From a virus (taxonomy: Duplodnaviria; Caudoviricetes), in the IMG/VR virus record IMGVR_UViG_3300014159_000001, positions 6,199 through 70,198 of that record: a stretch of 64,000 bases of DNA. One strand, given 5' to 3'. Of this stretch, positions 7,794 through 50,704 are shown piece after piece (the first letter of the stretch is position 1; each line of letters opens with the position of its first letter). The position numbers and the translations under genes were made by a program. Below the pieces are notes generated by a model. That model did no database searches. It saw only the letters and a list, made by a program, of their open reading frames with translations, and was not told the DNA's origin.

Positions 7794-8170
7794 TGAGCGC
7801 GATCAATACGGCTTGGATCGACAACCTCGCGGCGCAGATCAACGCGGTCCCGGATTGCGAGGCGCTCGAGGAGGTCGTCAACGACGTGATGGCGGACGTG
7901 ACCGCGCAGCTCGAGGCGAACGCGAAGCAAATCGCGGCGCTCACCGCGTTGACCGTCGCGCCGACGGACCTCCCGAGCGTAATCACGTGGATCAAGAACC
8001 AAATCGCCCTCTATGAGATCCAGTACGCGAACGCCCTCCTCGTGCAGGCGCAGCTGACCGCCGCCCTCGCGCAGCTCGTCGCGGCTATCAACGCCAAGAT
8101 CGCCGCCCTTAACTGCTCCTTCACGCCGCCGACGATCCCCGTCGTCCCGATCCCGCCCTTCCCGCCGTGA
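7793..8170 (+). CDS. Hypothetical helical tail-module protein
   Basis: TAATG overlap, 125 aa starting MSAINTAW, with phage-typical codon usage. Confidence 0.6.
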   Translation: MSAINTAWIDNLAAQINAVPDCEALEEVVNDVMADVTAQLEANAKQIAALTALTVAPTDLPSVITWIKNQIALYEIQYANALLVQAQLTAALAQLVAAINAKIAALNCSFTPPTIPVVPIPPFPP

Positions 8171-8541
8171 ACCCGCCGATGATCTTTCGCGGCCTCGACC
8201 CGACGACCGAGGACTGGACCTTCGGGCAGGGGATCTCTTCCTATGTCGGCGGCTCGGCGGCCGTCGCCCTCAACGTCAAGACGGCGCTCCAGACCTTCCT
8301 CGGCGACGCCTTCTGGGCCGCAACCTTCGGCGTCGACTGGATCAACCTCCTCGGCAACCGGAACACGCTCAACGCGATCCTCGCGCAGACCCGGGCCGTT
8401 ATCGCCGGCGCGGAGGGCGTCACCGCGATCCTCTCCGTCTCGTCGAACCTCGACCGCGCGACGCGGACCCTGACCCTTCAGTACAGCTACGCGGACGTCT
8501 ACTCGCCGAACGTCTCCGGCTCCGCCAACGTGACCATCTAA
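8167..8541 (+). CDS. Baseplate wedge subunit (gp25/gpW-like)
   Basis: 'DWTFGQG..SY...AVALNVKTALQTFLGDAFW...GVDW'. Confidence 0.7.
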   Translation: MNPPMIFRGLDPTTEDWTFGQGISSYVGGSAAVALNVKTALQTFLGDAFWAATFGVDWINLLGNRNTLNAILAQTRAVIAGAEGVTAILSVSSNLDRATRTLTLQYSYADVYSPNVSGSANVTI

Positions 8542-8553
8542 CCTCCCCCTCCC

Positions 8554-10230
8554 ATGCCAGCGACCCTCGACAACAACGGCCTGACGATCCCGACCATCTC
8601 CGAGATCCGCGACGAGATCCTCAACGGGACGGTCCTCTTCCCGGGCTACCTGACGATCTTCCCGGGCGCGAACGTCCAGCCGAACTCGCCCGACGCGAAC
8701 CTCATCAACATCTTCGCGCAGGTCGCGGTCGACGAGTACGAGTTCCTCCAGATGATCTACGACGCCTTCGACCCGGATCAGGCGAGAGGGCCGACGCTCG
8801 ACGCCCGGTGCGCGATCAACGGGATTCAGAGGGAGGCCGGGACGTATACGCAGCAGGGCGTCACCGTGACGGCGATAGGGGCGTGCAACCTCCAAGGGCT
8901 CGACCTCTACCCGAGCAACCCGTTCACGGTCTCGGACGGGCAGGGGAACCAGTACCAACTCCTAACGACCTACGCCTTCTCCGGCGCGGGCTCCGCGGCG
9001 CTCCTCTTCCAAGCCGCGACGATCGGGGCGATCCAGTCGACGGTCGGCGCGATCAACTCGATCGTCACCGTCGTCGCCGGCGTGGCCTCCGTGACCAACG
9101 CGACCGGGCCGGCGATCCTCGGCGTCCCGGAGGAGACGGACGCGGCGCTCCGAATCCGGCGGTCGAACTCCGTCGCGAACGGGAGCACGGGCTACGCGGA
9201 CGGGCTCCTCGGCGTCCTCCTCGCGGTCCCGGGCGTGACCGGGGCGAAGGTCTACGAGAACGACGGGCCGGCGATCGACTCGGACGGAATCCCGGGCCAC
9301 TCGATCTGGGTGATCGTCGCCGGCGGCGGGGTCGGGTTCGACGCGGCCGTCGCGGCGGCTATCTACTCGAAGAAGGACGCGGGATGCGGCCAGACGAACG
9401 GGGGCACCGGCGCGCTCGGGCAGGCTTTTCTCACTCCGACGACCGTCGCGTCCGCCAAGATCACGAACGGAGGCTCGGGCTACGCGACCGCGCCGGCCGT
9501 CCTCCTGACGACGCAGGCCGGGGACACGGGGCTCGGAGCGACCGCCAACGCCTTCCTGACGAACGGAGTCGTCACCTTGATCGGGATCACGAACCCGGGG
9601 AGCGGCTACAAGCTCCCGCCGATCATCTCGTTTTCGGGAGGCGGCGGGACCGGGGCCGCGGCCACGGCCGTGATGACGGCGACGACCGTCGGCTCCGTCG
9701 GCATCGTCAACGCCGGGAACTACTATTACAACCCGCCGACCGTCGCCCTCGAGTCCGCGGACGGGAACGGGGCCGGCGCGACGGCGACCGCGGCCGCGAA
9801 CCCGGCGGGGCAGATAACGGGGTTCACGATGGGGTCGCCCGGGGCCGGCTACACCGCGCCGCCGAAGGTCGTCCTCAACCCGAACACGGTCACGACGTCG
9901 ATCGCGCAGCTCGCCGGGCCGCCGATCGTCATCGCGTTCGACCAGCCGATCGCGCAGTCGATTTACTTCAAGGCGCAGGTGGATCCGATCACTGGCTTCG
10001 AGGTCGACCTCGTCTGGCTCGCGGCGCAGCTCGCGGCGACGACGTACACGATCGGGCAGAGCGCGGATGCGAGCAGCTTGATTGCCCTGATCAAGAAGCT
10101 CGCCCCGAACTGCTACGTCTCGAACGCCTTCGTCTCCGTCGACGGCGCGACGTGGGTCGCGCTCATCAACACTCCCGGGGTGAACTACCAGTTCAACCTC
10201 CCCGTCGGAAACGTCGCGCTGATCTCGTAG
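8554..10230 (+). CDS. Baseplate J-like protein with inserted GSGY-repeat domains
   Basis: 'GVPEETDAALRIRR' and 'VPGVTGAKVYEND...GIPGHSIWVIV' are gpJ motifs. Central NGGSGY/NPGSGY/GAGY repeats. Confidence 0.85.
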   Translation: MPATLDNNGLTIPTISEIRDEILNGTVLFPGYLTIFPGANVQPNSPDANLINIFAQVAVDEYEFLQMIYDAFDPDQARGPTLDARCAINGIQREAGTYTQQGVTVTAIGACNLQGLDLYPSNPFTVSDGQGNQYQLLTTYAFSGAGSAALLFQAATIGAIQSTVGAINSIVTVVAGVASVTNATGPAILGVPEETDAALRIRRSNSVANGSTGYADGLLGVLLAVPGVTGAKVYENDGPAIDSDGIPGHSIWVIVAGGGVGFDAAVAAAIYSKKDAGCGQTNGGTGALGQAFLTPTTVASAKITNGGSGYATAPAVLLTTQAGDTGLGATANAFLTNGVVTLIGITNPGSGYKLPPIISFSGGGGTGAAATAVMTATTVGSVGIVNAGNYYYNPPTVALESADGNGAGATATAAANPAGQITGFTMGSPGAGYTAPPKVVLNPNTVTTSIAQLAGPPIVIAFDQPIAQSIYFKAQVDPITGFEVDLVWLAAQLAATTYTIGQSADASSLIALIKKLAPNCYVSNAFVSVDGATWVALINTPGVNYQFNLPVGNVALIS

Positions 10231-10231
10231 G

Positions 10232-11173
10232 ATGCCCGCCACCCCTTCATGGCCGACCGCCGGAGCCCCGACCTCGGGGACGATCCCGAGCTCGAACCTG
10301 ATCGCGATCATCAACTACTACGTCGCGCGGCTCATCTTCCAGTACGCGGACAAGCCGAACGCGCAGCGCTTGATCGCCATCCTCGCGAAGCAGGCGGCGA
10401 TGGACGATCTCGCGACCCTCGTCCTCGGGGGCTTCGACCTCGACTCGGCCGTCGGCCCGCAGCTCGACATCCTCGGCAAGTACATCGGCGCGTCGCGGCT
10501 CCAAGGGTCCGCGATCTCGCCCGGCTACTTCTCGCTCTGGACCTACGCGAGCCCGCTCAACCCGAACAACTATCAAGGGACGTGGGACCCGGCCTCGAAC
10601 AACCCGCCCGTCCCGCCGGCGACGCCCGGGACCGCGGGCTACTGGTACGTCGCGAGCGCCTCCGGGGCCTCGACCGTCCCGACCGTCGACAACTTCGTCT
10701 GCGGCGACTGCCTCGTCTCGGACGGGACGAGCTGGAGCCGCGACACGAACGACTGCGGCAACGGCCTCACGGACTACTCCGACCTCTCGATCAACGCGAA
10801 CGCGACCTTCTACGGGTACGGGCAGGCGACGGTCCAGATCAACTCGCTCGCGGACCCGGCCTACCGGATCGTGCTCCAGCTCCGGGCCCTCGTGAACACG
10901 TCCGACGGGACCCTCCCCTCGATCAACAAGGCGCTCGCGACGCTCTTCCCGAAACTCATCTATATCGTCGACAATCAGAACATGACGCTGACCTACTACG
11001 TCGCCTCGACGATAACGGTCCCGCCCGCGGTCCTCGCTTTAGTCTTGCCCAAACCGATGGGCGTCGGGATAAACATCGTCATCTTCAACCCGTCCGAGGG
11101 CGAGATCACCACGGAAGACGGAACGCCGATCCTAACCGAGAGCGGGCTGCCGATCACGACCGAACCCTCCTAA
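10232..11173 (+). CDS. Baseplate wedge protein (DUF2612-like)
   Basis: 'LIFQYADKPNA', 'FDLDSAVGPQLDILGKYIG', 'LPKPMGV'. Follows the gpJ-like gene. Confidence 0.75.
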   Translation: MPATPSWPTAGAPTSGTIPSSNLIAIINYYVARLIFQYADKPNAQRLIAILAKQAAMDDLATLVLGGFDLDSAVGPQLDILGKYIGASRLQGSAISPGYFSLWTYASPLNPNNYQGTWDPASNNPPVPPATPGTAGYWYVASASGASTVPTVDNFVCGDCLVSDGTSWSRDTNDCGNGLTDYSDLSINANATFYGYGQATVQINSLADPAYRIVLQLRALVNTSDGTLPSINKALATLFPKLIYIVDNQNMTLTYYVASTITVPPAVLALVLPKPMGVGINIVIFNPSEGEITTEDGTPILTESGLPITTEPS

Positions 11174-12906
11174 TGAAGACGCCGAAGTTCCTCCTCGCGC
11201 TCCTCGCGCTCGTCCCCGTCACCTCCTTCGGGCAGCCGGTCGGGACCCCGATCTCGCAGCTCCCGTCGATCACGACCGTCGCCCCGGGCGACTTCCTCCC
11301 GATCGTCGACGTCACCGGCTCGCCCTACGTGACGAAGAAGGCGACCGTCGCGCAACTCTCGCCCGGCCTCGGCTCGGTCACGGCCCTCCCGAACACGCTG
11401 ATGCTCCGGGACTCGAGCGGCAACTCGCAGGTCAACACCCTGACGATCAACAACACGCCGGTGAACCCGTCCGACGCCGTGAACAAGGCTTACGTCGACG
11501 CGTTCAATCAGGGGCTCAACATCCACAACCCGGCGGCCGCCGCGACGACGCCGGCGATCGGGAACATCAACCTCTCGGGCGGCGCGCCGAACACTCTCGA
11601 CGGCGTCGCGCTCTCGGTCGACTTCCGCGTCCTCGTCAAGGATCAGACGGATGCGACGCAGAACGGCATCTACTACGTCTCGGTGCTCGGGACCGGCTCG
11701 AACGGGACGTGGCTCCGGACGACGGACGCGAACTCCGGCACGAACCTCGTCACGGGGAGTTACCTCTTTATCACCGGGGGGACGGTCAACGGCAACGCCT
11801 CGTGGGTCATGGTAACGCCGGGGCCCATTACGATCGGCGTCTCGTTGATCTCGTGGGAGCTCTTCTCGCAGACGACGCAGATCCTCGCGTCGAATATCAT
11901 CGGGCAGTTGATCGGCTCGCAGATCCAGAACTTCGCCCTCGACTACACCAAGTTCGCGAGCTCGATCCAGCCGGTCGGGATCGTCTCCGTCCTCCCGAAC
12001 CCCGCCGGCTACACCGGCGTCTCCGTCGTCTTCAACACGACCGACGGCAACCTCTACCGCTACGTCGGCGGCGCGTGGACGGTCGCGGTCCCGCCGCAGT
12101 TTACGTCGCAGATAACGGGGACCTCGATTGCCAACGGGACGATCACGACGGCCAACCTCGCTGCGAACGCAGTCTCGGCCGGACAGATCGCGGCGAACGC
12201 CGTCACCTCCGGGACGATCGCGGCGAACTCGATCACGTCCGGGATGATTCAGACCGGGGCGATCACCGCGTCGCAGATCTCGGCCGGGGCGATCACGACG
12301 AACGCTATCGGCGCGGGGCAGGTCCTCGCGGTCAACATCGGCGCGTTGACGATCACGGGGGCGCAGATTCAGGCGGGGACGCTCACGGCGGACAAGTTCA
12401 ACGTCAACGCGATCTCGGCGATCTCGGCGAACATCGGGACGATCACGGCCGGGATACTCACGGCGAACGTCGCGGTCGACATAGGGAGCGGCTACAACGA
12501 GGTCGCGATCACGCCCGGGATCGGCCTCCAAATCGCGGGCGGCCTCGTCGACTTCGGCGGCGTCACCTTCGGCAACCCGACCCTCCGGTTCCACGGCGTC
12601 GGCTCCTACGCGCTCTCGGAGGCCCGGATCGCGACGAGCGCGACCGGGATCACGCCGCCGTATATCGCCTACATCGACGCCGGCGGGACGCTCGCGGTCA
12701 ACATCTCGGAGGGCGGCATATTCATGTCGGACACGAAGGCGATCCAGTCGAACGGGACCTCGTACATCAACCTCGACGGCGCGAACCCGACGGCGGGGAT
12801 TACGACGATCGCGTCGACGGCCGGGAGCGCCGGCGCGCTCTGGGGCTACTTTCACCTCAAAATCTTCGGCGTCGGCGAGGTCGCCGTGCCGTACTACCAC
12901 CCATAG
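11173..12906 (+). CDS. Tail-fibre-like protein with N-terminal signal peptide
   Basis: Starts MKTPKFLLALLALVPVTSFG-Q. Contains the fibre domain 'DAVNKAYVD...LDGV...RVLVKDQTDATQNGIY' and 'IAANAVTS/IQTGAITA' repeats. Confidence 0.72.
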   Translation: MKTPKFLLALLALVPVTSFGQPVGTPISQLPSITTVAPGDFLPIVDVTGSPYVTKKATVAQLSPGLGSVTALPNTLMLRDSSGNSQVNTLTINNTPVNPSDAVNKAYVDAFNQGLNIHNPAAAATTPAIGNINLSGGAPNTLDGVALSVDFRVLVKDQTDATQNGIYYVSVLGTGSNGTWLRTTDANSGTNLVTGSYLFITGGTVNGNASWVMVTPGPITIGVSLISWELFSQTTQILASNIIGQLIGSQIQNFALDYTKFASSIQPVGIVSVLPNPAGYTGVSVVFNTTDGNLYRYVGGAWTVAVPPQFTSQITGTSIANGTITTANLAANAVSAGQIAANAVTSGTIAANSITSGMIQTGAITASQISAGAITTNAIGAGQVLAVNIGALTITGAQIQAGTLTADKFNVNAISAISANIGTITAGILTANVAVDIGSGYNEVAITPGIGLQIAGGLVDFGGVTFGNPTLRFHGVGSYALSEARIATSATGITPPYIAYIDAGGTLAVNISEGGIFMSDTKAIQSNGTSYINLDGANPTAGITTIASTAGSAGALWGYFHLKIFGVGEVAVPYYHP

Positions 12907-12912
12907 ACTCCC

Positions 12913-13665
12913 ATGGCCGGACTAGCACGCAAGACAGCGCAACTCTTCGCCGGCGGCCTTCCCGCGGCCGGCAACCTCGCGGTCTGGGGTTCGCTCAAGG
13001 GGGGCGCGGCCTCCTACTCGAACGACCCGGCCGCGATCCAGTCGGCGGCGTGGGCGGAGGGCCTCGTCGGCGCGGTGATCGGCAACCGCTCGCCGTCGAT
13101 CGAGGACCTCGACGCCCTTTTCTACGTGATCACGTACCAGCTTCAGTATCTCCTCACGCGGGGGCTGGCGGAGTACGACCCGAACACGACCTATGACCAC
13201 TTCGACATGTGCCGGGTCGGGCCGACGATCTACTACTCGAACGTCGACAACAACACCGGCAACGCGCCGCCTTCCGCGCAGTGGACGAACCTCCTCACCG
13301 GGAGCTCCGCGCCGAACCTCGCCGTCGCGTGGGTCGTCTTCTCCGGGACGCAGGTCGGCGGGGGAGGGGCTTGTCAGGTCTTCAACGGGTACAACGTCGC
13401 GAGCGTGACGAAGCTCGGGACGGGGTCCTATCAGGTCAACTTCGCGAGCCCGCTCCCGAGCTCAAACTACGCCGTCGCCGGGATGTGTGGCGTCGCCAAC
13501 GGGGCGACGGCCGACCCGGGGAGCAACAACCTCGTCATCGGCGCGCCGAACGGGTCGACGGGAATCCGGAACCAGAACGCGTGCCAGATCTGCTCGCGCG
13601 AGCCGACCCAGTCCCCGGGGCTCGAGGACTGCGGCTACATCTCGGTGATCTTCTTCGGGTCATGA
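12913..13665 (+). CDS. Tail fibre / fibre-attachment protein
   Basis: N-terminus 'MAGLARKTAQLF...DPAAIQ...PSIEDLDALFYVITYQLQYLLTRGLAEYDPNTTY' resembles fibres found next to DUF2612 genes. No signal peptide. Confidence 0.68.
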   Translation: MAGLARKTAQLFAGGLPAAGNLAVWGSLKGGAASYSNDPAAIQSAAWAEGLVGAVIGNRSPSIEDLDALFYVITYQLQYLLTRGLAEYDPNTTYDHFDMCRVGPTIYYSNVDNNTGNAPPSAQWTNLLTGSSAPNLAVAWVVFSGTQVGGGGACQVFNGYNVASVTKLGTGSYQVNFASPLPSSNYAVAGMCGVANGATADPGSNNLVIGAPNGSTGIRNQNACQICSREPTQSPGLEDCGYISVIFFGS

Positions 13666-13743
13666 CGCCACGCTCAACGCAACCCTCGACGACCGGAAGC
13701 GCCGCCCGCCCCGCGGGCCCCGCCCGGCCCTCCCTCTCGATGA

Positions 13744-14370
13744 TTGCCGACCTACGCTAGCACCTCGATCCGCCTCCGGCTCTCCAACGTCTCGAAGCCG
13801 CAAGGGCGGCTCGTCGACGAGGAGACGGCGGAGAGGCCGGAGATCTTCGCGACCCAGCCGCTGACGATCGCCTTCGCGGTCTTCGACGCCTACGACGACG
13901 TCGTCGACCTCTCGAACATCTCCTACGTGGAGGCGGACTTCGTCAACGACCCGGAGTGCGGCGAGATCCTCGCTTCGTCCTCGATCCTCGCCGCGGCGCT
14001 GACGCCCCTCATCCCGGTCGCCGCTTGGCTCGACGGGACGGAGGATCAGGGCGAGATCGGGTTCACGACGGACCAGCTCGCCGCGTTGACCGGCCGGCGC
14101 GCGTGGCTCGTTGTCCGGGGCCTGACCGCGGCCGGCAACGTGATCATCTTCGGGGCCGGGTGGGTCAACGTCCGGCCGTCCGGCGCCCCCGCCGCCGTCT
14201 ACCTCCCGCTCTCCCCCGTCCCGGCGATCATCCCGGCCGGCGCGATCTACGAGATCCCCGCCGGCGTCGTCGTCATCTTCCCGACCTCCCCGCAGATCCT
14301 CGGCGAGTTGATCTGCGACCCAGCCGAGGGCGACCTCCCGCCCGGGGCTTTCACGATCATCTCCGCCTAA
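13744..14370 (+). CDS. Hypothetical beta-rich structural protein
   Basis: 208 aa with a TTG start and phage codon usage. Confidence 0.55.
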   Translation: MPTYASTSIRLRLSNVSKPQGRLVDEETAERPEIFATQPLTIAFAVFDAYDDVVDLSNISYVEADFVNDPECGEILASSSILAAALTPLIPVAAWLDGTEDQGEIGFTTDQLAALTGRRAWLVVRGLTAAGNVIIFGAGWVNVRPSGAPAAVYLPLSPVPAIIPAGAIYEIPAGVVVIFPTSPQILGELICDPAEGDLPPGAFTIISA

Positions 14371-14384
14371 CCAAGGACACGCCC

Positions 14385-14888
14385 ATGCCAGCACAAGGTC
14401 TCCTCATCCCGCTAATCGACCCGACGACCGTCACCGTCCCGCCCGCCGGCAAGATCTCGCTGGTCGTCAACCTCTCCGGCCTCCTCACGGTCATCAAGTC
14501 CGACGGCTCGATCAACCCGATCTCGCCGACGAACCAGACGTCGGACGAATCGGACGCGAGCTCCGTCTCCGCCAACATGAACATCGGGCCGGGGAGCGGC
14601 CTACACACCGCGAGCGTCGTCGTCACGGGGCTCGCGAGCGTCCGGACCTTCTCGCTCGTCAACGTCGGGCTCTCCGAGCTCAACGCGGGCTGGCGGATCA
14701 GGGTCTTCTTCGACCTCTCCGTCGCGGTCGCGGGGATCACGCTCGAGGTCTTCGACGGCAACACGCTCGGGACCGAGCTCTTCAACTACGTCACCGACGG
14801 CACCCAGAAATCGGCCTATGGAGACTTCTATTGGACCGGCACCAACTGGAAGGCCGTCGGCTCGGCCGTCCCGGCGATCAACGCATAG
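14385..14888 (+). CDS. Hypothetical structural protein
   Basis: AAGGA RBS followed by ATG, starting MPAQGLLIPL. Confidence 0.6.
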   Translation: MPAQGLLIPLIDPTTVTVPPAGKISLVVNLSGLLTVIKSDGSINPISPTNQTSDESDASSVSANMNIGPGSGLHTASVVVTGLASVRTFSLVNVGLSELNAGWRIRVFFDLSVAVAGITLEVFDGNTLGTELFNYVTDGTQKSAYGDFYWTGTNWKAVGSAVPAINA

Positions 14889-14899
14889 GGAGACCACCA

Positions 14900-17272
14900 A
14901 TGAACAAGAAGATCCTCGCGCTCCTCCTCTCGGCCCTCGCGCCGGCCGCCTTCGGACAGATAACGGTCACGAAGACCTCCGGGACGAACGTCGTCGACAA
15001 CGGCCCCATCGTAATCGGCTCCGGCAACTCGGTCACGTTCCTCTCCGGCTCCTCGCTCAACCTCGAGAACGGGGCCTCGCTCGGCAACGCGCTCCCGTGG
15101 TCCGCCCTCTCCGGCATCCCGAGCCCGGCGTTTGTCGCGAGCGGCGACGCGTCCGGCAACGGGACACTCTCCGCCTCCGGGCCTGGCGCGCTCCCGCTGA
15201 CGCTCGCCGTCTCCGGCGTGACGGCGGGGACCTACGGCGACGCGACGCACGTCCCGCAGTTCGCCGTCGACGCCAAGGGCCGCGTGACCGGCGTGACCTC
15301 AGTGGCGATCGCGGAGACGGGCGTCCTCTTAACGGCGAACAACCTCTCGGAGCTCGTCGGGAGCGCCTCGACCGCCCGGGGCAACCTCGGCGTCGCGATC
15401 GGGACGAACGTCGAGGCGTGGTCCGTCACGCTCGACTCGTTCGCCTCCGCCGGCAACGCCCCATCCTACTACCTCAACGCCGCGAACCTGACGGGGACCC
15501 TCCCGGCCGCGCGGCTCCCGGCGTTCACCGGCGACGCGACCGCCCCGGGCGGCTCCGCGGCATTGACCCTCGCCTCGACCGCCGTCTCCGCCGGCTCCTA
15601 CGGGGACGCGAGCCACGTCGGGACGTTCACGGTCGACGCGAAGGGCCGGTTGACCGCGGCCTCGAACGCGGCGATCGCGATCACGGAGCCGTGGACCTCC
15701 CTCTCCGGCGTCCCGAACTCCGTCTGGACATTGACCGGGGACGTCACCGGGACGATCACGACGAGCGCCCTCGCGAGCGCGAGCGGCGGGACGACCCTCG
15801 CGAACTCGGGCGTCACGTCCGGGACCTACGGCTCGGCGACGCAGAGCTTGACGGCGACGGTCGACTCCAAGGGCCGCGTGACCGCGCTCTCGGCCCAAAC
15901 CGTGACGCCCCCGTGGTCCTCGATCTCCGGGAATCCGATCTCGGTGACGGCCCTCAAGACGGTCGTCTTCTCGAACACGCTCACGTTCGCGGGGACCGAC
16001 GGCGCGACGCTCAACGTCGGGGCCGGCGGAAGCCTCGGGAGCGCGGCGTTTACGGGCTCGGGCTCGTACGCGCCGCCGACGAGCGGCTCCGCTATCCTCT
16101 ACGGGAACGGCTCCGGCGGGTTCTCGAACGTGACCGTCGGCTCGAACCTCTCCTTCAACGCGGGGACGCTCGCCTACTCCGGGCCCCTCGGGGGCGGGAC
16201 GGTCCTGAGCGTCGGCTCCGGCACCGGATTGACCGGGGGGCCGATAACGAGCTCCGGCTCCCTCTCCATCTCATCGGCCTACGCCGGAAACGGGATCGGG
16301 ACGGTCAACGGGTTCGCCTATGGCAACGGCTCCGGGACAATCACGTCCGTGACCGTGGGCTCCGGACTGGTGCTTGCGGGAGGGTCGATCTCGCTTCCGA
16401 CCTCGATCGCATCAATGGGCGTGACGAACGGCTCGACGATCGACTCGTGGGGGACGAAGACGGTCCCGGCCGGGACAGTCGCGGACCTCTCGAGCGCGCA
16501 GGCGTTCACGAACAAGACGATCGCGGGCGGGTCGAACACGATCACGGGGATCGGCAACACCTCGTTGACGAACTCCTCGATTACCATCGCCGGATCGGCG
16601 ACGGCTCTCGGCGGCTCGATCACGCTCGACGGGATCACGGGGCTCTCGACGACGGGGCTCGTCAAGCGGACCGGGGCGAACACCCTCGCGATCGCGACGG
16701 CGGACACGGACTACTCGACGCCGGCGGGGACCGAGACCCTGACGAACAAGACCTATGACACGGCCGGGACCGGGAACGTCTTCGACGTCAACGGCCGGGG
16801 GATCACCGGCTACTCCGGGACGAACAACACCGTGGCCTTGACCGGCTCCCCGGCGTTCTCCGGGACCCCGACGACGCCGAACGCCTCGGCGTTGACGGAC
16901 AACACGCAAGTCGCGAACACGGCCTATGTCGACTCGGCCGTCGCGGCGGCGCAGTTGATGACGATCAACAACCAAGGGAGCGGGACGTACACGCTCCAGC
17001 TATCCGACGCGAACGCCCTGATCCGGCACCCGAGCGCGGACACGAACGCCCGGAGCTGGGTAATCCCCGCGAACGCCTCCGTCGCCTTCCCGATCGGGAC
17101 CGTCGTCTCCTTCTACAACCAACCGAGCGCGGGGACGATCACGCTCTCGATCACGTCCGACACGTTGACGACGGCGAACTCGGGCGCGACGGGCGCGGTG
17201 ACGATCCTCGCGGGGCACACCGCGTCGATGGTCAAGGACGCCTCGACGAGCTGGATCCTGAACCTCAACTGA
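14900..17272 (+). CDS. Long tail-fibre-like protein with signal peptide
   Basis: Starts [20 protein letters not shown]. Three 'G(T/S)YG...VD(A/S)KGR' fibre repeats and a C-terminal 'YTLQLSD...[13 protein letters not shown]' domain. Confidence 0.75.
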
Positions 17273-17273
17273 C

Positions 17274-18299
17274 GTGAGCAACAAGGGCGGAGACCTCCGG
17301 GGCTGGACGATCATCTTGATCGGCTTGGCGTGCTTCGCCCTCTCGTCGACGCTCTCGACGGCGACCCCGACGCAGAGCTTCTACCGCTCCTTCGCGGCAA
17401 CCGGGCCGACGCCAACGCCGACGCCCACCCCGACGCCAACGCCGACGCCCACCCCGACGCCGACCCCGTCCCCCACTCCTTCCCCGACCCCGACGCCGAC
17501 GCCGACCCCGTCGCCGACGCCGACTCCTCCCCCGCCGACCCCGACGCCGACGCCTTCCCCGACGCCGTCGCCGACGCCCACTCCTTCTCCTTCCCCGACG
17601 CCAACGCCGAGCCCGTCCCCGACCGCGACGCCTAGCCCGACCCCGACGCCCGTCCACGGAACCGCCCTCCTAACCGCGGGCACGACGACTTGGCAGGTCC
17701 CGGCGGGCGTCTCGAACCTGATCTCGGTCGCGATCGTCTCGGGCGCCGGCGGCGGCGGCTCCGGCTCGTCCGGCTCGGGCGGCGGCGGCGGCGGCGCGGG
17801 CGGCGAGTACGTCGCGATCAACGTCGGCGTCACGCCCGGCGCGATCCTCAACGTCACGATCGGCACCGGCGGCGGCGCGAACTCGGACGGCAGCGCGAGC
17901 TCGTTCCAGCCGGTCGTCATCTCCCCGGTCGGCGGCGGCAAGGGCGGGCCACCGTACACCGCCGGCGACAACGGCGGGAGCGGCGGCGGCGGCTCCGGCG
18001 GCTCCGGCATCAGGGGTGGCGGCTCCGGGACTACGGGCGAGGGCAACAACGGCGCGAGCGGCGACTCCGGCGGCGGCGGCGGCGGCGGCGGCGCGAACGG
18101 CGCGGGTGCCGGCCACGTCGGCGGCGCGGGCGTCACGATCGACGGCCAGACGATGTGCGTCGGCGGCAACGGCGGGACGACCGGCAACAACACGAACGGC
18201 GCGGCCCCGAGCGGCTACGGCTCCGGCGGCAACGGCGGCGGCCTCAACGGAGGGACCGGGAGCGCCGGCAACGCGGGGTGCATATACATCACTTATTGA
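17274..18299 (+). CDS. Secreted Pro/Thr-linker plus glycine-rich-domain protein
   Basis: Hydrophobic N-terminal signal, about 83 aa of PT/PS linker, then a Gly-rich 'GGGGGAGG' domain of the type seen at fibre tips. Confidence 0.7.
17401..17650 (+). repeat. Coding (Pro-Thr/Ser)n tandem repeat
   Basis: ccgacg/cccacc/ccgtcc units encoding PTPTPTPSP. Confidence 0.9.
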
Positions 18300-18356: not shown

Positions 18357-18710
18357 ATGAAGAACAACACCATTATCGCCGTCGCGCTCCTCGCCCTCCT
18401 CGGTCTCCTCGCGGTCCCGGCCATTCGGTCGGACCCGGTGCCGCAGGGGAAGATCGCGACGCAACCGATGAGCCCCTACGACGTCGCGATCTACCAGCGC
18501 GACCAATCCACGAAGGCCCTGCAAGACGCGCAGCTCCAGCTCGCGCTCAAGATCCAAGAGGTCGACGCGCTCCGCGGGCAGGTCGACGAGCTCAAGAAGG
18601 AGATCGACGCGCTCAAGGCGAAGGCGGCCTCGAATCCCTCGGCAGGCGCGGCCGGCGAACCCGGTCATTCGAGCGCGGCCGAGTCTAAGGCGGAGGGCAA
18701 GACCAAATGA
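18357..18710 (+). CDS. Signal/TM-anchored coiled-coil protein (i-spanin-like candidate)
   Basis: N-terminal hydrophobic helix followed by a heptad coiled coil, in the lysis position. Confidence 0.55.
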   Translation: MKNNTIIAVALLALLGLLAVPAIRSDPVPQGKIATQPMSPYDVAIYQRDQSTKALQDAQLQLALKIQEVDALRGQVDELKKEIDALKAKAASNPSAGAAGEPGHSSAAESKAEGKTK

Positions 18711-18964
18711 ACCCGAACGTCCTCGCGTGGTCCCGGAAGTTCCTCGCCGCCGCCTTCGGAGGCGCGGCCGACGGCATCCTAATCGGCTTCGGCGGCTCCG
18801 GCGCGTTCTCGATGGGAAGCGGGACGCCGGTCAACCCGAAGCAGGTCCTCTACATCCTAGCCGTCAACGTCCTCCTCGACACGGCCCGCTTCGTCAAAGC
18901 GAACCCGGACCCGTGGGCCTTCCCGGTCGCGGACCCCTCCAAACCTCAAACCCCGACAACGTGA
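18707..18964 (+). CDS. Small membrane protein, holin candidate
   Basis: 85 aa with two hydrophobic segments, directly upstream of the peptidase. Confidence 0.45.
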   Translation: MNPNVLAWSRKFLAAAFGGAADGILIGFGGSGAFSMGSGTPVNPKQVLYILAVNVLLDTARFVKANPDPWAFPVADPSKPQTPTT

Positions 18965-19755
18965 AGCACCTCCATCGCTACCTCTACCGGCCCCCGGCCA
19001 AGAATCACCCCTACATGCTCTCCCGCTCCGGCGGCGAGCGCATCGCCCCGGCGTCGATCCCCGACGTCGTCGACCTCCGGCCCTTCCTCCTCCCGCCCCG
19101 GGATCAGGGGCAAGAGGGGTGCTGCTCCGGCTTCGCGACCGCGGCGCTCCGGGAGGCGCTCCACAACTTGGCGGCCTCATCCGGGTCCGCCGCCCTCGCA
19201 CCCCCAGCGTCACTCGGCCCATACCTGAGCCCCGCGTACCTCTACGCCCGGACGCGAATGGTCGAGGGCACCTTCCCCGAGGACTCCGGCGCGACGATCG
19301 CCGACGAGATGTCGACGCTCGAGAACTACGGCGTCTGCCTCGAGTCCGACCTCCCCTACACGGGCGACGCCTCCGAGACCCCGACGCCCGTGGCCGACGT
19401 CGCCGCCGCGCCCGAGAGGATCTCCTCGCCGGCGTGCCTCAACTCGGGAGGCGCGGTCAACGTCTCCGACATCGAGGAGCAGCTCGCGGTCGGCCTCCCG
19501 GTCGTCTTCGGGATGCCCGTCTATTCCAGCTTCGAGTCGATCGGCCCGGATGGCGTCGTCCCGGTCCCCGACACGTCTAGCGAACAGCTCCTCGGCGGTC
19601 ACGCGATGTTGATCGCGGGGCACCGGCACTCGGCCGCGCGGTTTATCGTCCGCAACTCTTGGTCCACGTCCTTCGGAGACGGCGGGTACATATATCTGCC
19701 TTACTGCCTTGTCTCCTCCTTCTTCGAGGCGTGGACCGCCCCCCTCGAAATCTGA
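18961..19755 (+). CDS. Papain-family (C1) cysteine peptidase
   Basis: 'VDLRP...RDQGQEGCCSGF', 'GGHAMLIAG' and 'IVRNSWSTSFGDGGY' supply the Q/C/H/N catalytic residues. Confidence 0.88.
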   Translation: MKHLHRYLYRPPAKNHPYMLSRSGGERIAPASIPDVVDLRPFLLPPRDQGQEGCCSGFATAALREALHNLAASSGSAALAPPASLGPYLSPAYLYARTRMVEGTFPEDSGATIADEMSTLENYGVCLESDLPYTGDASETPTPVADVAAAPERISSPACLNSGGAVNVSDIEEQLAVGLPVVFGMPVYSSFESIGPDGVVPVPDTSSEQLLGGHAMLIAGHRHSAARFIVRNSWSTSFGDGGYIYLPYCLVSSFFEAWTAPLEI

Positions 19756-19766
19756 AACCCGAAACC

Positions 19767-20318
19767 ATGAAAAAAATAACATCAATGCTAGCGATCGCGG
19801 CGCTCCTCCTCGGGGCGTCCGCTCTCCAGACCGGGTGCGCGACGCCCGGGCAGAACGCAACCGCCCTGACGCAAGCCGCCGGCGAGGCCGGTGGCGCGTA
19901 CCTCCTCGGACTCCATTCGACGAACGGCGTCGTGGACCCGGCCTACCTCGCCGGCTACGAGACCGTCGTCCCGAAGGTCGCCGCCGTGATGCAAGGGGCG
20001 ATAACGCCCGCGGACTTCCAGCTGATCGTCTCCTCTTTTAAGTCGAGCGGCAAGCTCTCGGCCGGGCAGCTCGGCGCGCTCGGCTTCGCGAACTCGATCA
20101 CGGCCTCGTTCGTCCAATACAACGGAGGCAACAACCTGACGCCCGACGGGGCCGCCGTCGCGCTCGCGGCCGGCAACCTCGCGGTCGGAATGGGCGAGGC
20201 GGTCGGCCTCGTCACCGGAGTCAACTGGACGCCCCCGACGTGGGTCCCGCCGACGGCGAACGTCGTGACGACCCCTCCCGTCGCCGTCTCCTCGCTCGTC
20301 GAGGTCCCGAAGAAATAG
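19767..20318 (+). CDS. Lipoprotein
   Basis: MKKITSMLAIAALLLGASALQTG-C lipobox. Confidence 0.65.
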   Translation: MKKITSMLAIAALLLGASALQTGCATPGQNATALTQAAGEAGGAYLLGLHSTNGVVDPAYLAGYETVVPKVAAVMQGAITPADFQLIVSSFKSSGKLSAGQLGALGFANSITASFVQYNGGNNLTPDGAAVALAAGNLAVGMGEAVGLVTGVNWTPPTWVPPTANVVTTPPVAVSSLVEVPKK

Positions 20319-20331
20319 CAAAACCATCGCC

Positions 20332-20661
20332 ATGAAATCAACCCCCTCCGGCGGTCGACGAGGCCGCCGGCGGGACGTCAAAAAACGCCTCGAACAAATC
20401 GAAAAAACCATGTCCGCCATCTCCGACGAACTGGCCGCCGTCAAGGCGAGCCTCGACGCCGCCACCGCGAGCGTCTCGACAATCAACTCCGGCGTCGCCG
20501 CCCTCGACGCGGAGATCACCTCCCTCAAGGCGCAGATCGCGTCCTCCGGCTCCGTCCTCACGGCCGACGATCAGGCCGCGCTCGACGCGATCAAGGCGGA
20601 GGCCGACACGCTCGCGACCGCGACCGCCGCGGCCTCGACCGCCGCCAACGCCCCGGTCTGA
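20332..20661 (+). CDS. Ala-rich coiled-coil protein (start may be ATG 20410)
   Basis: Heptad pattern 'LAAVKASLDAATASVSTINSGVAALDAEITSLKAQI'. Confidence 0.6.
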   Translation: MKSTPSGGRRGRRRDVKKRLEQIEKTMSAISDELAAVKASLDAATASVSTINSGVAALDAEITSLKAQIASSGSVLTADDQAALDAIKAEADTLATATAAASTAANAPV

Positions 20662-20668
20662 TCCCCCG

Positions 20669-20860
20669 ATGAAGGCGGCCTCCGCGCTCGCCCTCGTCCT
20701 CCTCGCCTCCTGCCTCCCGGTCTCAACGCCGGGGGGCCGGGCGGCGCGCGAGATCCGCGCGTGGCAGATCCTCAACCTCCCGACGCCGGCCGAGCGGATC
20801 GAGGCGTGGAACGCGCTCGTCGCCGAGACCCCGGACTCGGAGAAGTACCTCACCCGATGA
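20669..20860 (+). CDS. Small lipoprotein (o-spanin-like candidate)
   Basis: MKAASALALVLLAS-C lipobox, 63 aa. Confidence 0.55.
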   Translation: MKAASALALVLLASCLPVSTPGGRAAREIRAWQILNLPTPAERIEAWNALVAETPDSEKYLTR

Positions 20861-21594
20861 CCCTCTCCGACTTCCTCCCCGAGGCGCGCTGCCTCTCTTC
20901 CGCGTACGATCTCCTCGCCGCGAACTCCCTCGCGCCGGCGGTCCCGGCGGACTTCCCGTGGCCACCCGGCTTCGGCTTTCGCTACTGGCTCAACGCCGTG
21001 GACGACTTCCTCTTCTTCAAAGAGCGCACGTTCATGGGCCTCTTCGGCTCGTCCGCGGACGAGGACCTCGTCCTGATCGTCGGCACGCACACCTTCCTCC
21101 AGTGGGTCAAGGACGCGGAGGGAGATCCCCGGTCGTGGACCACGTCCGACGGCGTCTCCGGCAACGTCGAGCACGGCTTCTCTGACGTCTACGGCGGGAT
21201 CTCGGTCGTCGGGGCGAGCGGCCCGGTGATCACCCTCCGGCAGTTTCTCGAGGCGCAGCAGAAGACGAGCCGGCCGGTGACGATCGTCGGGCACTCGCTC
21301 GGAGCCGCGGTCGGGGGGATCGCGGCGGCCGACGCCTCCTTTCCGCGCTTCGTCCTCTTCGCCATGCCGAAGTGGGGAGACCTCGGCTTGACGAAGGCCC
21401 TCCGGGCGAAGGCCCGGACGAACTCGATCGTCGTGCGCAACTCGCAGGACTACGTCCCGATGCAGCCCCCTCTCCCCATCTACCAGAGCTGGCTCCCGGA
21501 GATCACCTTCAACTCGGACGAACTCGGCGTAGGCGGTTCGGCCGAGGAGCGGCACTCGATGAACGGGTGCTACCTCCGCGCATGTTCCACCTGA
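20857..21594 (+). CDS. Class-3 lipase / alpha-beta hydrolase
   Basis: 'VEHGFSDVY' and the nucleophile elbow 'IVGHSLGAAVG', with 'VRNSQDYVP' and a terminal 'HSMNGCY'. Confidence 0.82.
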   Translation: MTLSDFLPEARCLSSAYDLLAANSLAPAVPADFPWPPGFGFRYWLNAVDDFLFFKERTFMGLFGSSADEDLVLIVGTHTFLQWVKDAEGDPRSWTTSDGVSGNVEHGFSDVYGGISVVGASGPVITLRQFLEAQQKTSRPVTIVGHSLGAAVGGIAAADASFPRFVLFAMPKWGDLGLTKALRAKARTNSIVVRNSQDYVPMQPPLPIYQSWLPEITFNSDELGVGGSAEERHSMNGCYLRACST

Positions 21595-39794: not shown

Positions 39795-40307
39795 ATGAAA
39801 CTCATCAAGCTATTCGCCGCCCTAATAGGGACGGCCCTCCCCGCGGCCCCGGCGGCCGCGTTCATCCCGAGCCACCCGCCGACGGCCCTGACGGACGACG
39901 TCAACCTCTGGATCCTCCAATGCGAGGGGCTCGAGGCCGAGCTCCCCTCCGAGGCGTCTTACCTCGCCGGCGCGGCCGCCGCCTACGAGGCCGAGCTCCC
40001 GCTCCTCTTCTTCTACGGCGACGAGTTCGAGGCGAACGAGGAGACCTTCGAGTGGGAGGTCGACCAGATCCTGACGATCGTCCTCTGGGCCCAGCTCCAC
40101 CAGTACGGGACGACGGGCCCGGTCTTCGACTACTACGAGGGCGCGATCGACGCGTGCTACTTCACGATGGCGACGATGGACGCCGAGGCCGGCCTCGTCT
40201 GCCCCGGCTCGACGCGCTGGGCCGGCTCGACGAGCGGCCCGGGCCTCGCCCCGGAGGCCGACCCGCCGGCGCGGTCCGCGCCCCGGGATAAGGGAGGCCG
40301 GCCGTGA
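39795..40307 (+). CDS. Secreted acidic hypothetical protein
   Basis: MKLIKLFAALIGTALPAAPAAA signal peptide with an AxA site. Confidence 0.6.
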   Translation: MKLIKLFAALIGTALPAAPAAAFIPSHPPTALTDDVNLWILQCEGLEAELPSEASYLAGAAAAYEAELPLLFFYGDEFEANEETFEWEVDQILTIVLWAQLHQYGTTGPVFDYYEGAIDACYFTMATMDAEAGLVCPGSTRWAGSTSGPGLAPEADPPARSAPRDKGGRP

Positions 40308-43901: not shown

Positions 43902-44450
43902 ATGAAGACCCCGACCCTCGCCCTCCTCCTCGCCATCGCACTGCCACTTCGCGCCGACCCCTTGATCGAGGGGACGATCGGCTTCTCCGGGACGGCGACG
44001 ACGGACTCGGGGGACCTCTTCCACGCCGGGGCGTTCACGTCGATCTCGGCGATCACCGAGCCCGGGGACCGCGGCGACTACGCGGGCGTCACGCCGGGCG
44101 CTCCGGTCGACTTTCCCGCCTTCGCCTTCTCGGCCCCGAGCGTCGAGCCGCTCTGGACCTTCGATCTCGGCGGCGTGACGTACTCGTTCGACGCGACGAG
44201 CATCGACCTCGTCGGCCGCTACGATCACGGCGAGCTCTCGTTCGTCGAACTCGAGGGAGACGGGATCGCCTCGATCACGGGCTTCGCGCCGACGCCGGGC
44301 GACTGGGGGATCGAAGTCAGGGACGTCGACGGGGACAGCTCGTTCACCTTCGGGGCGACGTCCTCGGTCCCGGACGCGACGCCGACCGCGATCCTCCTCG
44401 CGATCGCCACCGTCGCGATCGCCGCCTCGGGCCGGCGCGCCCTCCGATGA
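43902..44450 (+). CDS. VPDSG-CTERM-like exosortase-targeted surface protein
   Basis: Signal peptide MKTPTLALLLAIALPLRA, a beta-rich body, and a C-terminal VPD + TM helix + basic tail (VPDATPTAILLAIATVAIAASGRRALR). Confidence 0.72.
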   Translation: MKTPTLALLLAIALPLRADPLIEGTIGFSGTATTDSGDLFHAGAFTSISAITEPGDRGDYAGVTPGAPVDFPAFAFSAPSVEPLWTFDLGGVTYSFDATSIDLVGRYDHGELSFVELEGDGIASITGFAPTPGDWGIEVRDVDGDSSFTFGATSSVPDATPTAILLAIATVAIAASGRRALR

Positions 44451-46215: not shown

Positions 46216-46485
46216 ATGGTTTGCCCCTACTCGCCCTACTCGAAACCCGCGAGCATCGTGATCATGATCGACGACCCGGACATCCTCGAGGCGCTCGGAC
46301 AACGGGGCGACACGATCACGCTCCGCTATTCGATCAAGCGGCTCGTCGACGACTTCATGGCGATCGGCGGATGGGACGACGAGGGGATGCTCCGGCTCGT
46401 CCTCGCGTGGGAATCGGCCGCGAAGAGGTTCCGGGCCGATTACGAGAAGGGCAAGCAACTCGCCGCGACCGCCGAAAGCAAATGA
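46216..46485 (+). CDS. Hypothetical protein
   Basis: Its stop overlaps the TerL ATG. Start uncertain. Confidence 0.45.
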   Translation: MVCPYSPYSKPASIVIMIDDPDILEALGQRGDTITLRYSIKRLVDDFMAIGGWDDEGMLRLVLAWESAAKRFRADYEKGKQLAATAESK

Positions 46486-47963
46486 CTGACGCCCCGCCCT
46501 CCCCGGTCTCATCGCCCGGGCCGGAGCCCGGGATGCCCGAGGACCACCTCTCCTTCTGGGAGTATTTCTCCGAGTTCTTCGTCCCTCTCAACCGGCTCAA
46601 CCTCCCTCTCCACGAGCCGCACCGCGAGATCGCCGAGGCGCTCGAGGCCGCTTACCTCGGCGCGCTCGACCCGTGGATCCAGTTCATCGCGGTGACGATG
46701 CCCCCGCGGACCGGGAAGACGAAGCTGAACGAGGGGCTCGCGACGTGGGGGCTCGGCTACTACCCGGAGAGCCAGATCATCTTGACCTCGTACTCGCAGG
46801 ACCTCGCGGAGCTCTCCCTCTCCTACTGCGACAAGACGATCAAGGAAGGATGGTATCAAGGCTGGTTCGGGGACCACGTCCACGGGGTGACGGCCGATCA
46901 CCTCTCGACGATCGAGGGCGGGAACATCTACGCGGAGGGCGTCTTCGGCTCGCTCCTCGGCAAGGGCGCGGGCTTGAAGGAGCCGGCCGGCGGCTACCTC
47001 GGGCTCGACGACCCGGCGAAGATCGAGCAGGCGCTCTCGCGCGGCGTCGCGAAGAAGCTCGAGCTCTGGTTCGAGACGACCCTGATCAACCGGCGCAACT
47101 CGGACCGCTTCTGCCCGATCATAATCATCGCGCAGCGCGCCGGCTTGACCGACCTGATCGAATACCTACGGACGACCTACAAGCGCGAGACCCTCGTCCT
47201 CAAGTTCCCGTGCTTCGTCGGCCGGCGCTCCCGGTTCCCGGAGACGTACTCGGACGACCGGCTCCCGATGCTCGAGCGGACGCGGATCGGGCGGTTCACG
47301 CTCGCGGCGCTCCTCCAGCAGGAGCCGATCGCGCTCGGCGGGAACATGATCCCGGTCGACAAGTTCCTCCGCTACTCGCCGGCGGACCGCCTCCTCGCGT
47401 GGGACGACAAGATCGTCGTCTGCGACACGGCGCTCAAGAAGGGCGAGGGCAACGACTGGTGGGTCCTCCAATGCTGGGGCCGCGTCGGCCGGAGTTGCTA
47501 CCTCCTCGCCTCCTCGAGGACGCAGTGCAACTCGGCGGAGTTCATCCGGGAGGCGGCGGCGTTCTGGCTCCGGCAAACGACGGCGCAGGAGCATCACCCG
47601 GTCTCGCGGTTCATAATCGAGGATTCGGCCGCGGGCCCGGGCGTGATCTCCGCGCTCAACGAGGCGGGCATCCCGGCGACCCCGATCATCCCGATCAAGG
47701 ACAAGGCGGCGCGGGTCAACGACGTCCTCCCGTTCATCGAGACGGGGTGCGTCTACCTCCCGAAGGACGACGACCCGGAGGCCCCGTGGCTCCCCGACCT
47801 CCTCCTCGAGATGAGCGCCTTCACGCAAGACCTCACGCACGAGCACGACGATCAGGTCGACTGCGTCGCCTACGCCTTGAGCGAGCTCCTCGGCGCGGGC
47901 CTCTCGATCCTCCAAGTCCTCGGCGTCGCGCCGGCGAACCTCCCGTTCCTCCCGATGGGTTGA
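46482..47963 (+). CDS. terL: Terminase large subunit
   Basis: Walker A 'MPPRTGKT', 'LTSYSQDLA', Walker B-like 'GLDDP', 'IIIAQR', nuclease 'CDTA.K.GEGND', 'IEDSAAG', 'HDDQVDCVAYA'. Confidence 0.92.
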   Translation: MTDAPPSPVSSPGPEPGMPEDHLSFWEYFSEFFVPLNRLNLPLHEPHREIAEALEAAYLGALDPWIQFIAVTMPPRTGKTKLNEGLATWGLGYYPESQIILTSYSQDLAELSLSYCDKTIKEGWYQGWFGDHVHGVTADHLSTIEGGNIYAEGVFGSLLGKGAGLKEPAGGYLGLDDPAKIEQALSRGVAKKLELWFETTLINRRNSDRFCPIIIIAQRAGLTDLIEYLRTTYKRETLVLKFPCFVGRRSRFPETYSDDRLPMLERTRIGRFTLAALLQQEPIALGGNMIPVDKFLRYSPADRLLAWDDKIVVCDTALKKGEGNDWWVLQCWGRVGRSCYLLASSRTQCNSAEFIREAAAFWLRQTTAQEHHPVSRFIIEDSAAGPGVISALNEAGIPATPIIPIKDKAARVNDVLPFIETGCVYLPKDDDPEAPWLPDLLLEMSAFTQDLTHEHDDQVDCVAYALSELLGAGLSILQVLGVAPANLPFLPMG

Positions 47964-50369: not shown

Positions 50370-50704
50370 GCCAGCCGTTCCCTCTCCCCGGCTACGTCGA
50401 GCGGCCTTGCGATCCGAATAATCGCGTCGTCTTCGCGAAAGCCGACGACTTCGGGGAGATGCCTCCGGCGGGGTGGGGAATCTTCGGTGGCGGCCTCGGT
50501 TTGATGACGCGCTGTCCGAAGTGCGGCGGCCGCGCCGGCCTCGACTTGCACTCGGTCAACGCCCGAGGAGAAGCCAATCCGAGTTACCTCTGCGCGCGCT
50601 CGACGTGCGGCTTCCACGTCTACGTTCGCCTCGACGGATGGGACAAGGGAGAGAAACCCGCGCGGACTCAGTGGACTGGTGCCGGATGGGGACCCGAAAC
50701 GTGA
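50366..50704 (+). CDS. Small zinc-ribbon protein
   Basis: 'CPKCG...H.....G...PSYLC...CGFH.Y.RLDGW'. Confidence 0.6.
   Translation: MSQPFPLPGYVERPCDPNNRVVFAKADDFGEMPPAGWGIFGGGLGLMTRCPKCGGRAGLDLHSVNARGEANPSYLCARSTCGFHVYVRLDGWDKGEKPARTQWTGAGWGPET

Follow-up and report, generated by a model that had tools for sequence, protein, structure and literature searches.

Assembly of tailed phages is, in the textbook view, entirely cytoplasmic. In filamentous phages, pVIII and the receptor-binding pIII are virion proteins that carry Sec signals and are assembled after export. Among other described systems, the predator Bdellovibrio bacteriovorus produces mosaic adhesive trimer (MAT) fibres, which are Sec-exported, phage-fibre-like trimers (Caulton et al. 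2024, PMC10769870). Porphyromonas phages possess signal-peptide genes of unknown function, some of which follow the Q-rule described for Bacteroidetes (Matrishin et al. 2023, PMC10367356; Bochtler et al. 2018, PMC5837995), and for one phage endolysin a Sec signal peptide has been predicted (PMC8951688). Here we analyzed a window of 64,000 nucleotides, i.e. the whole stretch of DNA under study, corresponding to bases 6199–70198 of a 70,198-base contig (IMG/VR record IMGVR_UViG_3300014159_000001) from an uncultured tailed phage. Two tail-fibre genes in this window, fibre 1 (protein P0001, 11173–12906) and fibre 2 (P0002, 14900–17272), encode proteins beginning with Sec-type signal peptides. Judging from sequence, tail fibres are probably exported to the periplasm, in this phage as in dozens of uncultured relatives, by a route that is undescribed for tailed phages.

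Classic signal peptides had been noted at 11173, 14900, 17274, 55845 and 59248 in the first-pass annotation, and the translations indeed show N-termini of the Sec and signal peptidase I (SPase I) type for these genes. The fibre 1 signal (11173–11232, + strand) comprises 20 amino acids, MKTPKFLLALLALVPVTSFG, with Q as the next residue and a predicted cut SFG/Q, where the slash marks the site. The fibre 2 signal (14900–14956, + strand) has 19 amino acids and a predicted cut AFG/Q. The corresponding sites are ...SRALS/Q for 55845 and ...GPALA/A for 59248, and 17274 has a GTG start and a 13-amino-acid hydrophobic core. The fibre-type modules attributed to the signal-bearing proteins were also recovered: DFRVLVKDQTD in P0001, three VDAKGR/VDSKGR units in P0002, and Gly_rich_2 in P0003, the product of 17274. 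Signals were called by a home-made rule on n-, h- and c-regions; this rule calls about 10 of the 85 proteins of the genome, compared with 32 of 1700 shuffled proteins (2%) and 3 of 138 segments starting at an internal Met. The positives comprise five large proteins that resemble fibres or spikes, the proteins of the lysis cassette, two morons and two small proteins for which the call is doubtful, and not a single head, sheath, tube or baseplate protein was called among the 85. A Lys or Arg is present within the first 10 residues of all five signal proteins of the window. Their h-regions reach a best 11-residue Kyte-Doolittle mean of 2.2–3.0 and a 19-residue mean of 1.7–2.1, being shorter than a membrane span. 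Two other types of signal were considered and rejected. A lipoprotein signal (signal peptidase II) would need a lipobox, L-[AS]-[GA]-C, with its Cys at +1 behind the h-region, and there is no Cys near the cut in 11173, 14900, 55845 and 59248; the Cys of 17274 sits inside the hydrophobic core, preceded by G-L-A. A signal-arrest-release (SAR) domain does not fit either, the cores being rich in Leu, Val and Phe and followed by A-x-A-type sites, not weakly hydrophobic and rich in Gly, Ala and Ser.

The first-pass annotation had also considered that the true starts could lie downstream of the hydrophobic segments, which is not what we found. Downstream of the start codon, the stretch free of in-frame ATG, GTG and TTG extends over 52 codons in fibre 1, 34 in 59248 and 60 in both fibre 2 and 55845; 17274 has TTG codons at positions 15 and 18, within the hydrophobic core. 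The ATG of 11173 overlaps the stop codon of the upstream DUF2612 gene (ATGA), and in six related viral contigs (L086, L087 and L089–L092) the signal ATG is the sole start codon between the upstream stop and the anchor of the fibre. The starts are thus correct, and both a start-codon artefact and chance are excluded.

Mature fibre 1 (11233–12906, + strand) consists of an anchor motif (I-S-Q-L-P-S ... K-K-A-T-V-A-Q-L), a central domain (residues 96–239), a repeat-rich shaft and a tip. Homologues were searched among 5.8 billion proteins, where the full-length matches are 40–50% identical and all metagenomic. In 55 of the 70 full-length homologues, the anchor motif I-x-x-L-P-A is found at residue 20–27 after a signal-like segment of the same kind as that of fibre 1. 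The remaining 15 are signal-less, with the motif at residue 5–11 and nothing before it, and no intermediate N-terminal form exists among the 70. The 55 signal segments are 16–23 amino acids long, and without exception they have a net charge of +1 to +4 in the first 8 residues and a small-x-small site (most commonly LxA, AxA or LxS) located 3–6 residues before the motif Ile, at 4 residues in 46 of them. With a site at this distance, the cleaved form would have the same short N-terminal lead as the signal-less orthologues have after Met. Pairwise identity is 20% in the signal versus 53% in the next 40 residues. Such a low identity, together with the features that are kept, indicates that selection acts on the properties of the segment and not on its sequence.

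The whole tail module is found in the same order in nine IMG/VR contigs, with sheath, tube, W-, J- and DUF2612-type genes preceding the fibre. Two contigs, L088 and L093, leave no room upstream for a signal, and their fibres are thus true signal-less orthologues. The fibre 1 signal being present or absent with the same gene order in relatives, these phages provide a natural experiment with its own control. In a quick, unfinished maximum-likelihood tree of the mature parts, without outgroup root, a signal-less clade is nested with full support in a signal-bearing clade, and at least 4 changes are forced. Viral or bacterial proteins from outside this lineage that share the central domain rarely have a signal (4 of 137). 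On these features, we consider it likely that the N-terminal signals of the window are functional, i.e. that the proteins are exported and cleaved. As for the nature of the protein, P0001 matches PHROG families of tail fibres and of head decoration. Its sequence matches in PDB run via the central domain and hold at the domain level only: 9efk orf22, 23sh tail fiber gp9 and 9nx3 capsid decoration protein. The homologue in cyanophage PSS2 begins at the motif, without signal; GenBank annotates it as 'capsid decoration protein', RefSeq as 'virion structural protein'. The AlphaFold model of fibre 1 is poor (predicted local distance difference test, pLDDT, of 64), notably at the N-terminus, and Foldseek found nothing below E 1e-3 for it in PDB.

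Mature fibre 2 (14957–17272, + strand) presents an N-terminal Gln, a Q-x-x-V-[QT]-K anchor, three VDAKGR-type units, a mosaic shaft and a C-terminal tip. In the Atlas, P0002 resembles Uroviricota fibre clusters, the tip being like Mtd_N (template modelling (TM) score of 0.70 in that row). All the related anchors that we found carry a signal. The fibre 2 orthologues in L087, L088, L090 and L092 start with one, L088 included though its fibre 1 is signal-less, and their alignment shows an invariant Gln at the predicted +1 position, then x-x-V-[QT]-K. In four viral contigs of 37–43% GC (L169, L170, L172 and L173) the anchor reads Q-[TV]-N-V-Q-K after a signal ending in F-A or F-G, and three database proteins have the same anchor after a signal. 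Overall, the signal is present in 13 of 13 fibre 2 anchors and Gln at +1 in 12 of 13, in phages whose GC content ranges from 37 to 68%. To our knowledge, ordinary cytoplasmic Met removal cannot give an N-terminal Gln. The retention of this residue precisely where cleavage is predicted is an argument that cleavage does take place and that the N-terminus so created is important. In Bacteroidetes, SPase I substrates are marked by a Gln at +1 that is cyclised to pyroglutamate on the periplasmic side (PMC5837995). The F-A/Q and F-G/Q signals of the four low-GC contigs fit this Q-rule, which makes it probable that phages of two or more host phyla use this design.

The genes between fibre 1 and fibre 2 are signal-less. 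The first, at 12913–13665 (+ strand), encodes a fibre-like protein (phrog_11355/3484) whose signal is absent, as the first-pass annotation stated; its N-terminal part of about 120 amino acids is conserved and its C-terminus variable. Orthologues exist in all relatives, including phages at 37% GC. Two further genes, 13744–14370 and 14385–14888 (13744–14888, + strand), for which Pfam and PHROG gave no family, may encode a docking adaptor. In L172 and L173 (37–38% GC), the order is a 12913 homologue, one 291-residue protein covering both 13744 and 14385, and a signal-bearing fibre. In L170 (41% GC), a 350-amino-acid protein encoded at 1935–2987 of that contig combines a signal-less fibre-1-type anchor (I-S-Q-L-T-P-A ... 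K-R-A-T-I-A-Q-I) with a 14385-like C-terminal domain, and directly precedes a signal-bearing Q-V-N-V-Q-K fibre. No signal and no known family was found in the adaptor-like proteins of these three contigs. The L170 fusion suggests a chain from baseplate to adaptor to exported fibre. By analogy with branched fibre and tailspike systems, the 14385-like domain is a probable docking adaptor on the particle for the Q-anchored fibre; a folding chaperone would sit in the wrong compartment for a fibre that is exported.

The reading that we favour is export followed by late attachment. The N-terminal segments would be genuine, selected Sec signals cut by SPase I, by which the distal fibres (11173 and 14900) and the accessory proteins (17274, 55845 and 59248) would pass the host inner membrane. 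Cleavage would expose a defined anchor, namely Q-P-V-G-T-P-I-S-Q-L-P in fibre 1 and a Gln, probably cyclised to pyroglutamate, in fibre 2. Meanwhile, the signal-less heads, sheath, tube and baseplate would assemble in the cytoplasm. With exported fibres and cytoplasmic particles, docking could occur only after the inner membrane is breached. The time for it would come once the holin has acted, while the outer membrane still encloses particles and periplasmic contents together, a state that lasts up to the spanin-type step, or shortly after release. The docking site would be the baseplate for fibre 1 and the signal-less adaptor of 13744–14888 for fibre 2. Docking within seconds at micromolar concentrations is plausible, as an uncomputed estimate. 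That exported and trimmed fibres join the particles at lysis is a tentative proposal, possible in our judgement, in which we infer export, cleavage, docking partners and timing alike from sequence. A wider, two-compartment form of assembly is doubtful: the distal fibres of this contractile-tail lineage, and those of unrelated phages sharing the fibre 2 anchor, would all be made as Sec precursors, trimmed in the periplasm and added to fibreless, cytoplasmically built particles only in the seconds that separate holin action from outer-membrane rupture, with the N-terminal Gln or pyroglutamate of fibre 2 as the docking end.

Late attachment is favoured because fibre 1 has signal-less orthologues that share its anchor and its place in the gene order, because both fibres combine a conserved N-terminus with variable distal parts, which is the design of an attached protein, and because Gln at +1 makes sense only for a cleaved form. 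The signal-less neighbour kept beside fibre 2 across deep divergence also points to virion attachment. The first-pass annotation had proposed export, maturation in the periplasm, possibly with disulphides or glycosylation, and joining of the virions at lysis. What stands of it is that the signals look genuine and are selected in orthologues, and that the fibres are of the virion type and occupy the canonical slot. Disulphide-dependent maturation can be abandoned for the two fibres: P0001 and P0002 have no Cys, nor does the mature part of 40 of the 55 signal-bearing fibre 1 homologues. The suggested link to a glycosyltransferase cluster found no support either. In the supposed glycosylation cassette of four genes (49003–53629), Pfam recognises only an FkbM methyltransferase (49003–49665), and the three supposed glycosyltransferases have no Pfam match at E <= 0.01.

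Several observations weigh against late attachment. We know of no tailed phage that adds exported fibres to its particles, and our literature search found no tailed-phage fibre with a Sec signal, the promising papers dealing with cargo signals of extracellular contractile injection systems or with endolysins. The signal is dispensable for fibre 1, as indicated by the signal-less orthologues in the same group and by the nested signal-less clade. As the two fibres are devoid of cysteines, there is no obvious folding reason for export. Our cleavage-site picker favoured sites near the anchor motif, which makes the position of the small-x-small site softer than its presence. Finally, the signal-less fibre-like protein 12913 could serve the virion alone, and 17274, being without virion anchor, may indicate that at least part of the exported set acts in the envelope.

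These last two points lead to a reading, close to the surface remodelling that the first-pass annotation offered as its alternative, in which the signal-bearing fibre-type proteins are exported but act in the envelope of the infected cell, the virion relying on fibres without signal, of which 12913 is an example. The task of the exported proteins might be to hide or destroy the receptor from the inner side, to exclude superinfecting phages, to stop progeny adhering to debris, or to cleave polysaccharide of the cell surface. Many exported envelope factors of phages are known (T5 Llp, Cor, spanins, secreted endolysins), and 12913 is kept in every relative. Matrishin et al. (2023, PMC10367356) read the signal-bearing genes of Porphyromonas phages as envelope modifiers. 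The case is strongest for 17274, where nothing but a linker and a tip domain follows the signal. Relatives lack 55845 and 59248, a distribution common among accessory genes. However, anchor, length and position are unchanged in the fibre 1 orthologues without signal, which makes the function of the family independent of export, and conserved anchors with variable distal parts correspond to a virion-attached design. Fibre 1 is, moreover, translationally coupled to a baseplate gene, and next to fibre 2 a conserved gene without signal encodes what looks like a docking partner. We regard a purely envelope role as rather unlikely.

Another reading would conciliate both functions by means of two pools. 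Late overexpression would saturate Sec, and the unexported precursor, or otherwise processed protein, would build the virions while the cleaved pool has a job in the envelope. Accumulation of precursor when secretory proteins are overproduced is a general phenomenon, no new assembly route is needed, and gain or loss of the signal without loss of the fibre is readily explained. Yet there is no internal start from which a signal-less isoform could be made, and a hydrophobic extension of 20 amino acids would sit directly on the anchor. In addition, the Gln at the cleavage site of fibre 2 (12 of 13) matters only if the cleaved form is functional. This reading is unlikely in our opinion.

An absence of export appears quite improbable. 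The hydrophobic N-terminus would then serve as a helix for trimerisation or baseplate insertion or tether the protein to a membrane for assembly, or it would be a neutral leftover from adhesin genes of the host, and the poor AlphaFold model of the fibre 1 N-terminus is compatible with a structural role. But what is kept while the sequence drifts is the set of n-, h- and c-regions, the small residues at -3/-1 and the positive N-terminus, and orthologues lack the whole segment, never part of it. Furthermore, the positive-inside rule puts the protein body outside, and the composition is Leu-rich, with neither SAR-like character nor lipobox. As for an annotation artefact with true starts downstream of the hydrophobic segment, it is scarcely credible even though real starts in high-GC genomes are preceded by long open frames, given the lack of in-frame starts for 35–60 codons in 11173, 14900, 55845 and 59248, the sole start before the anchor in six relatives, the ATGA overlap with the upstream gene and the signal kept in 55 homologues.

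Beside the two fibres, the window encodes three accessory proteins with signals. P0003 (17274–18299, + strand) begins with a signal or signal-anchor, from which a Pro/Thr linker of about 95 amino acids leads to a glycine-rich domain (Pfam PF21722 Gly_rich_2, E=1e-9), and it has no virion-anchor domain; tblastn did not find it in relatives, including the complete relative G001. The two others, 55845–59243 and 59248–61662 (both + strand), follow the portal gene and are absent from relatives. Their signals have 24 amino acids (ALS/Q) and 20 amino acids (ALA/A), respectively. Each continues with a large Asn/Thr-rich body and a Pro/Thr linker, and both end with the same C-terminal jelly-roll (58914–59243 and 61321–61662). 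G001 is a genome of 47.7 kb with direct terminal repeats, in which signals were called only in its two fibres, of 584 and 1101 residues, and in two small proteins of lipoprotein type, one of 59 residues and one of 68 residues that is encoded next to holin-like genes. Proteins like 55845, 59248 and P0003 being lacking there, they are accessory to the larger genome. Relatives of the C-terminal domain that the two proteins share, about 110 residues long, number 707 among 1.84 billion representative proteins; most of them stand alone, with lengths of 107–136 amino acids, and Pfam and PHROG hold no family for the domain. In 26 of 106 short members of this family (among P0246–P0395) a signal is present, and the others start near the domain. 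This family thus shows the same pattern of signal add-on as the fibres. The domain is modelled with eight strands (pLDDT 94) and resembles unnamed phage proteins with TM scores of 0.8–0.9. Against solved structures the scores are only middling (Z 8.1 for Bacillus Ena, Z 7.5 for the KHP40 cement protein and Z 6.4 for Pam1 capsid chain H), and many unrelated jelly-rolls reach a similar Z. A capsid-cement role of the C-terminal domain of 55845 and 59248 is therefore no more than possible. Against cultured phages, tblastn gave no match with this domain, nor with the 75-amino-acid fibre anchor, and a word-based homologue search for 59248 gave a single weak match.

The last 123 or so bases of the contig repeat the first ones (1–123 versus 70076–70198), which indicates a complete genome, circularly closed or terminally redundant. 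Its GC content is about 68%, and nearly all genes are on the + strand. The late region comprises sheath-like (124–1473) and tube (1501–1956) genes, followed by W-like (8167–8541) and J-like (8554–10230, phrog_6) baseplate genes and by the DUF2612 baseplate protein in gpI-like position, without signal (10232–11173, + strand; Pfam PF11041, E=6e-29, phrog_587). Downstream of P0003 is a lysis-type cassette (18357–21594, + strand) encoding a transmembrane (tm)/coiled-coil protein, a holin-like protein with two tm segments, a papain-family peptidase (PF00112), two lipoproteins and a class-3 lipase (PF01764). No peptidoglycan-hydrolase family was matched by the cassette proteins scanned, and true lipoboxes occur only in this cassette (19764–20318 and 20669). 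A Terminase_6C match marks a terminase nuclease domain at 46482–47963, the portal gene lies at 54257–55834, and a MuF-type head protein with two ART-PolyVal stretches (PF18760, E=6e-28) is encoded at 61662–63998 and runs on across the genome junction. In the early/middle region, 39795–40307 encodes a small protein of no known family with a signal-like N-terminus, MKLIKLFAALIGTALPAAPAAA followed by F.

The same DNA was found in wetland and peat metagenomes; the shares in peat runs are small, and we limit the habitat to 'wetland/peat'. A contig from a wetland metatranscriptome is identical to 10969–11436, spanning the junction of DUF2612 and fibre 1 and the part coding for the signal. Being derived from an RNA library, it is weak evidence of expression, DNA carry-over being possible; contig depth in the sequencing runs is unsuitable for ranking expression. 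Scanning genome contigs with fibre 1 gave domain-level matches only (residues ~96–240), in many phyla, with no close prophage and no host named. One moron, at 43902–44450, is a signal-peptide protein with a C-terminus made of V-P-D, a hydrophobic span and R-R. Its nearest Atlas clusters carry PF18205 VPDSG-CTERM and are mostly of Verrucomicrobiota (feature score 0.97, structure TM 0.80), and NCBIfam gave no VPDSG-CTERM match for it. The host is probably a member of Verrucomicrobiota, these Atlas look-alikes being our sole lead, and a lead is no proof.

Should whole uncultured lineages export their receptor-binding fibres first, this would mean either an undescribed late assembly step tied to lysis or undescribed envelope factors derived from fibres. 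The finding would be categorically new only if export-dependent assembly is shown. Annotation of fibre genes would change, since signal-bearing fibre-like open reading frames are easily dismissed as host adhesins. So would host-range engineering, where fibres would need export-competent expression, and the view of how lysis timing and particle maturation are coupled. A sharp prediction is a virion N-terminus starting with Q or pyroglutamate followed by I-T-V-T-K.

When compared with the known systems, filamentous phages differ in that they assemble at the membrane and extrude without lysis, whereas here a head, a contractile tail and a lysis cassette are encoded. Sec-exported and SAR endolysins are likewise late phage proteins that use host Sec before lysis. 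However, they are lysis enzymes and not virion parts, and SAR domains are Gly/Ala-rich and uncleaved, in contrast to the Leu-rich segments with A-x-A sites described here. The Porphyromonas phage genes share with fibre 2 and its relatives the SPase I signals exposing an N-terminal Gln; they have been interpreted as modifiers of the envelope, with no tail component named among them, while the present proteins are of fibre type and lie in a tail module. The MAT fibres have the same layout of a signal peptide, at once a conserved N-terminal domain (about 130 amino acids in MAT), and then mosaic distal parts, and they show that export, and folding outside the cytoplasm, are feasible for fibres of this type. 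Unlike phage fibres, they are cellular proteins of a predator, found on the cell surface and not on a virion. The low-confidence model of fibre 1 gave only weak Foldseek rows with the MAT tips Bd2133 and Bd2439 (E ~0.1–1), and no sequence relationship emerged here. With the fibres of myoviruses (P2 gpJ-gpI-gpH, Mu-like), the likeness lies in the same slot after J-like and I-position baseplate genes, a conserved anchor with a variable distal part, fibre repeats, and PHROG tail-fibre matches. The known myovirus fibres are signal-less and assemble in the cytoplasm, whereas here a cleavable-looking Sec signal stands before the anchor.

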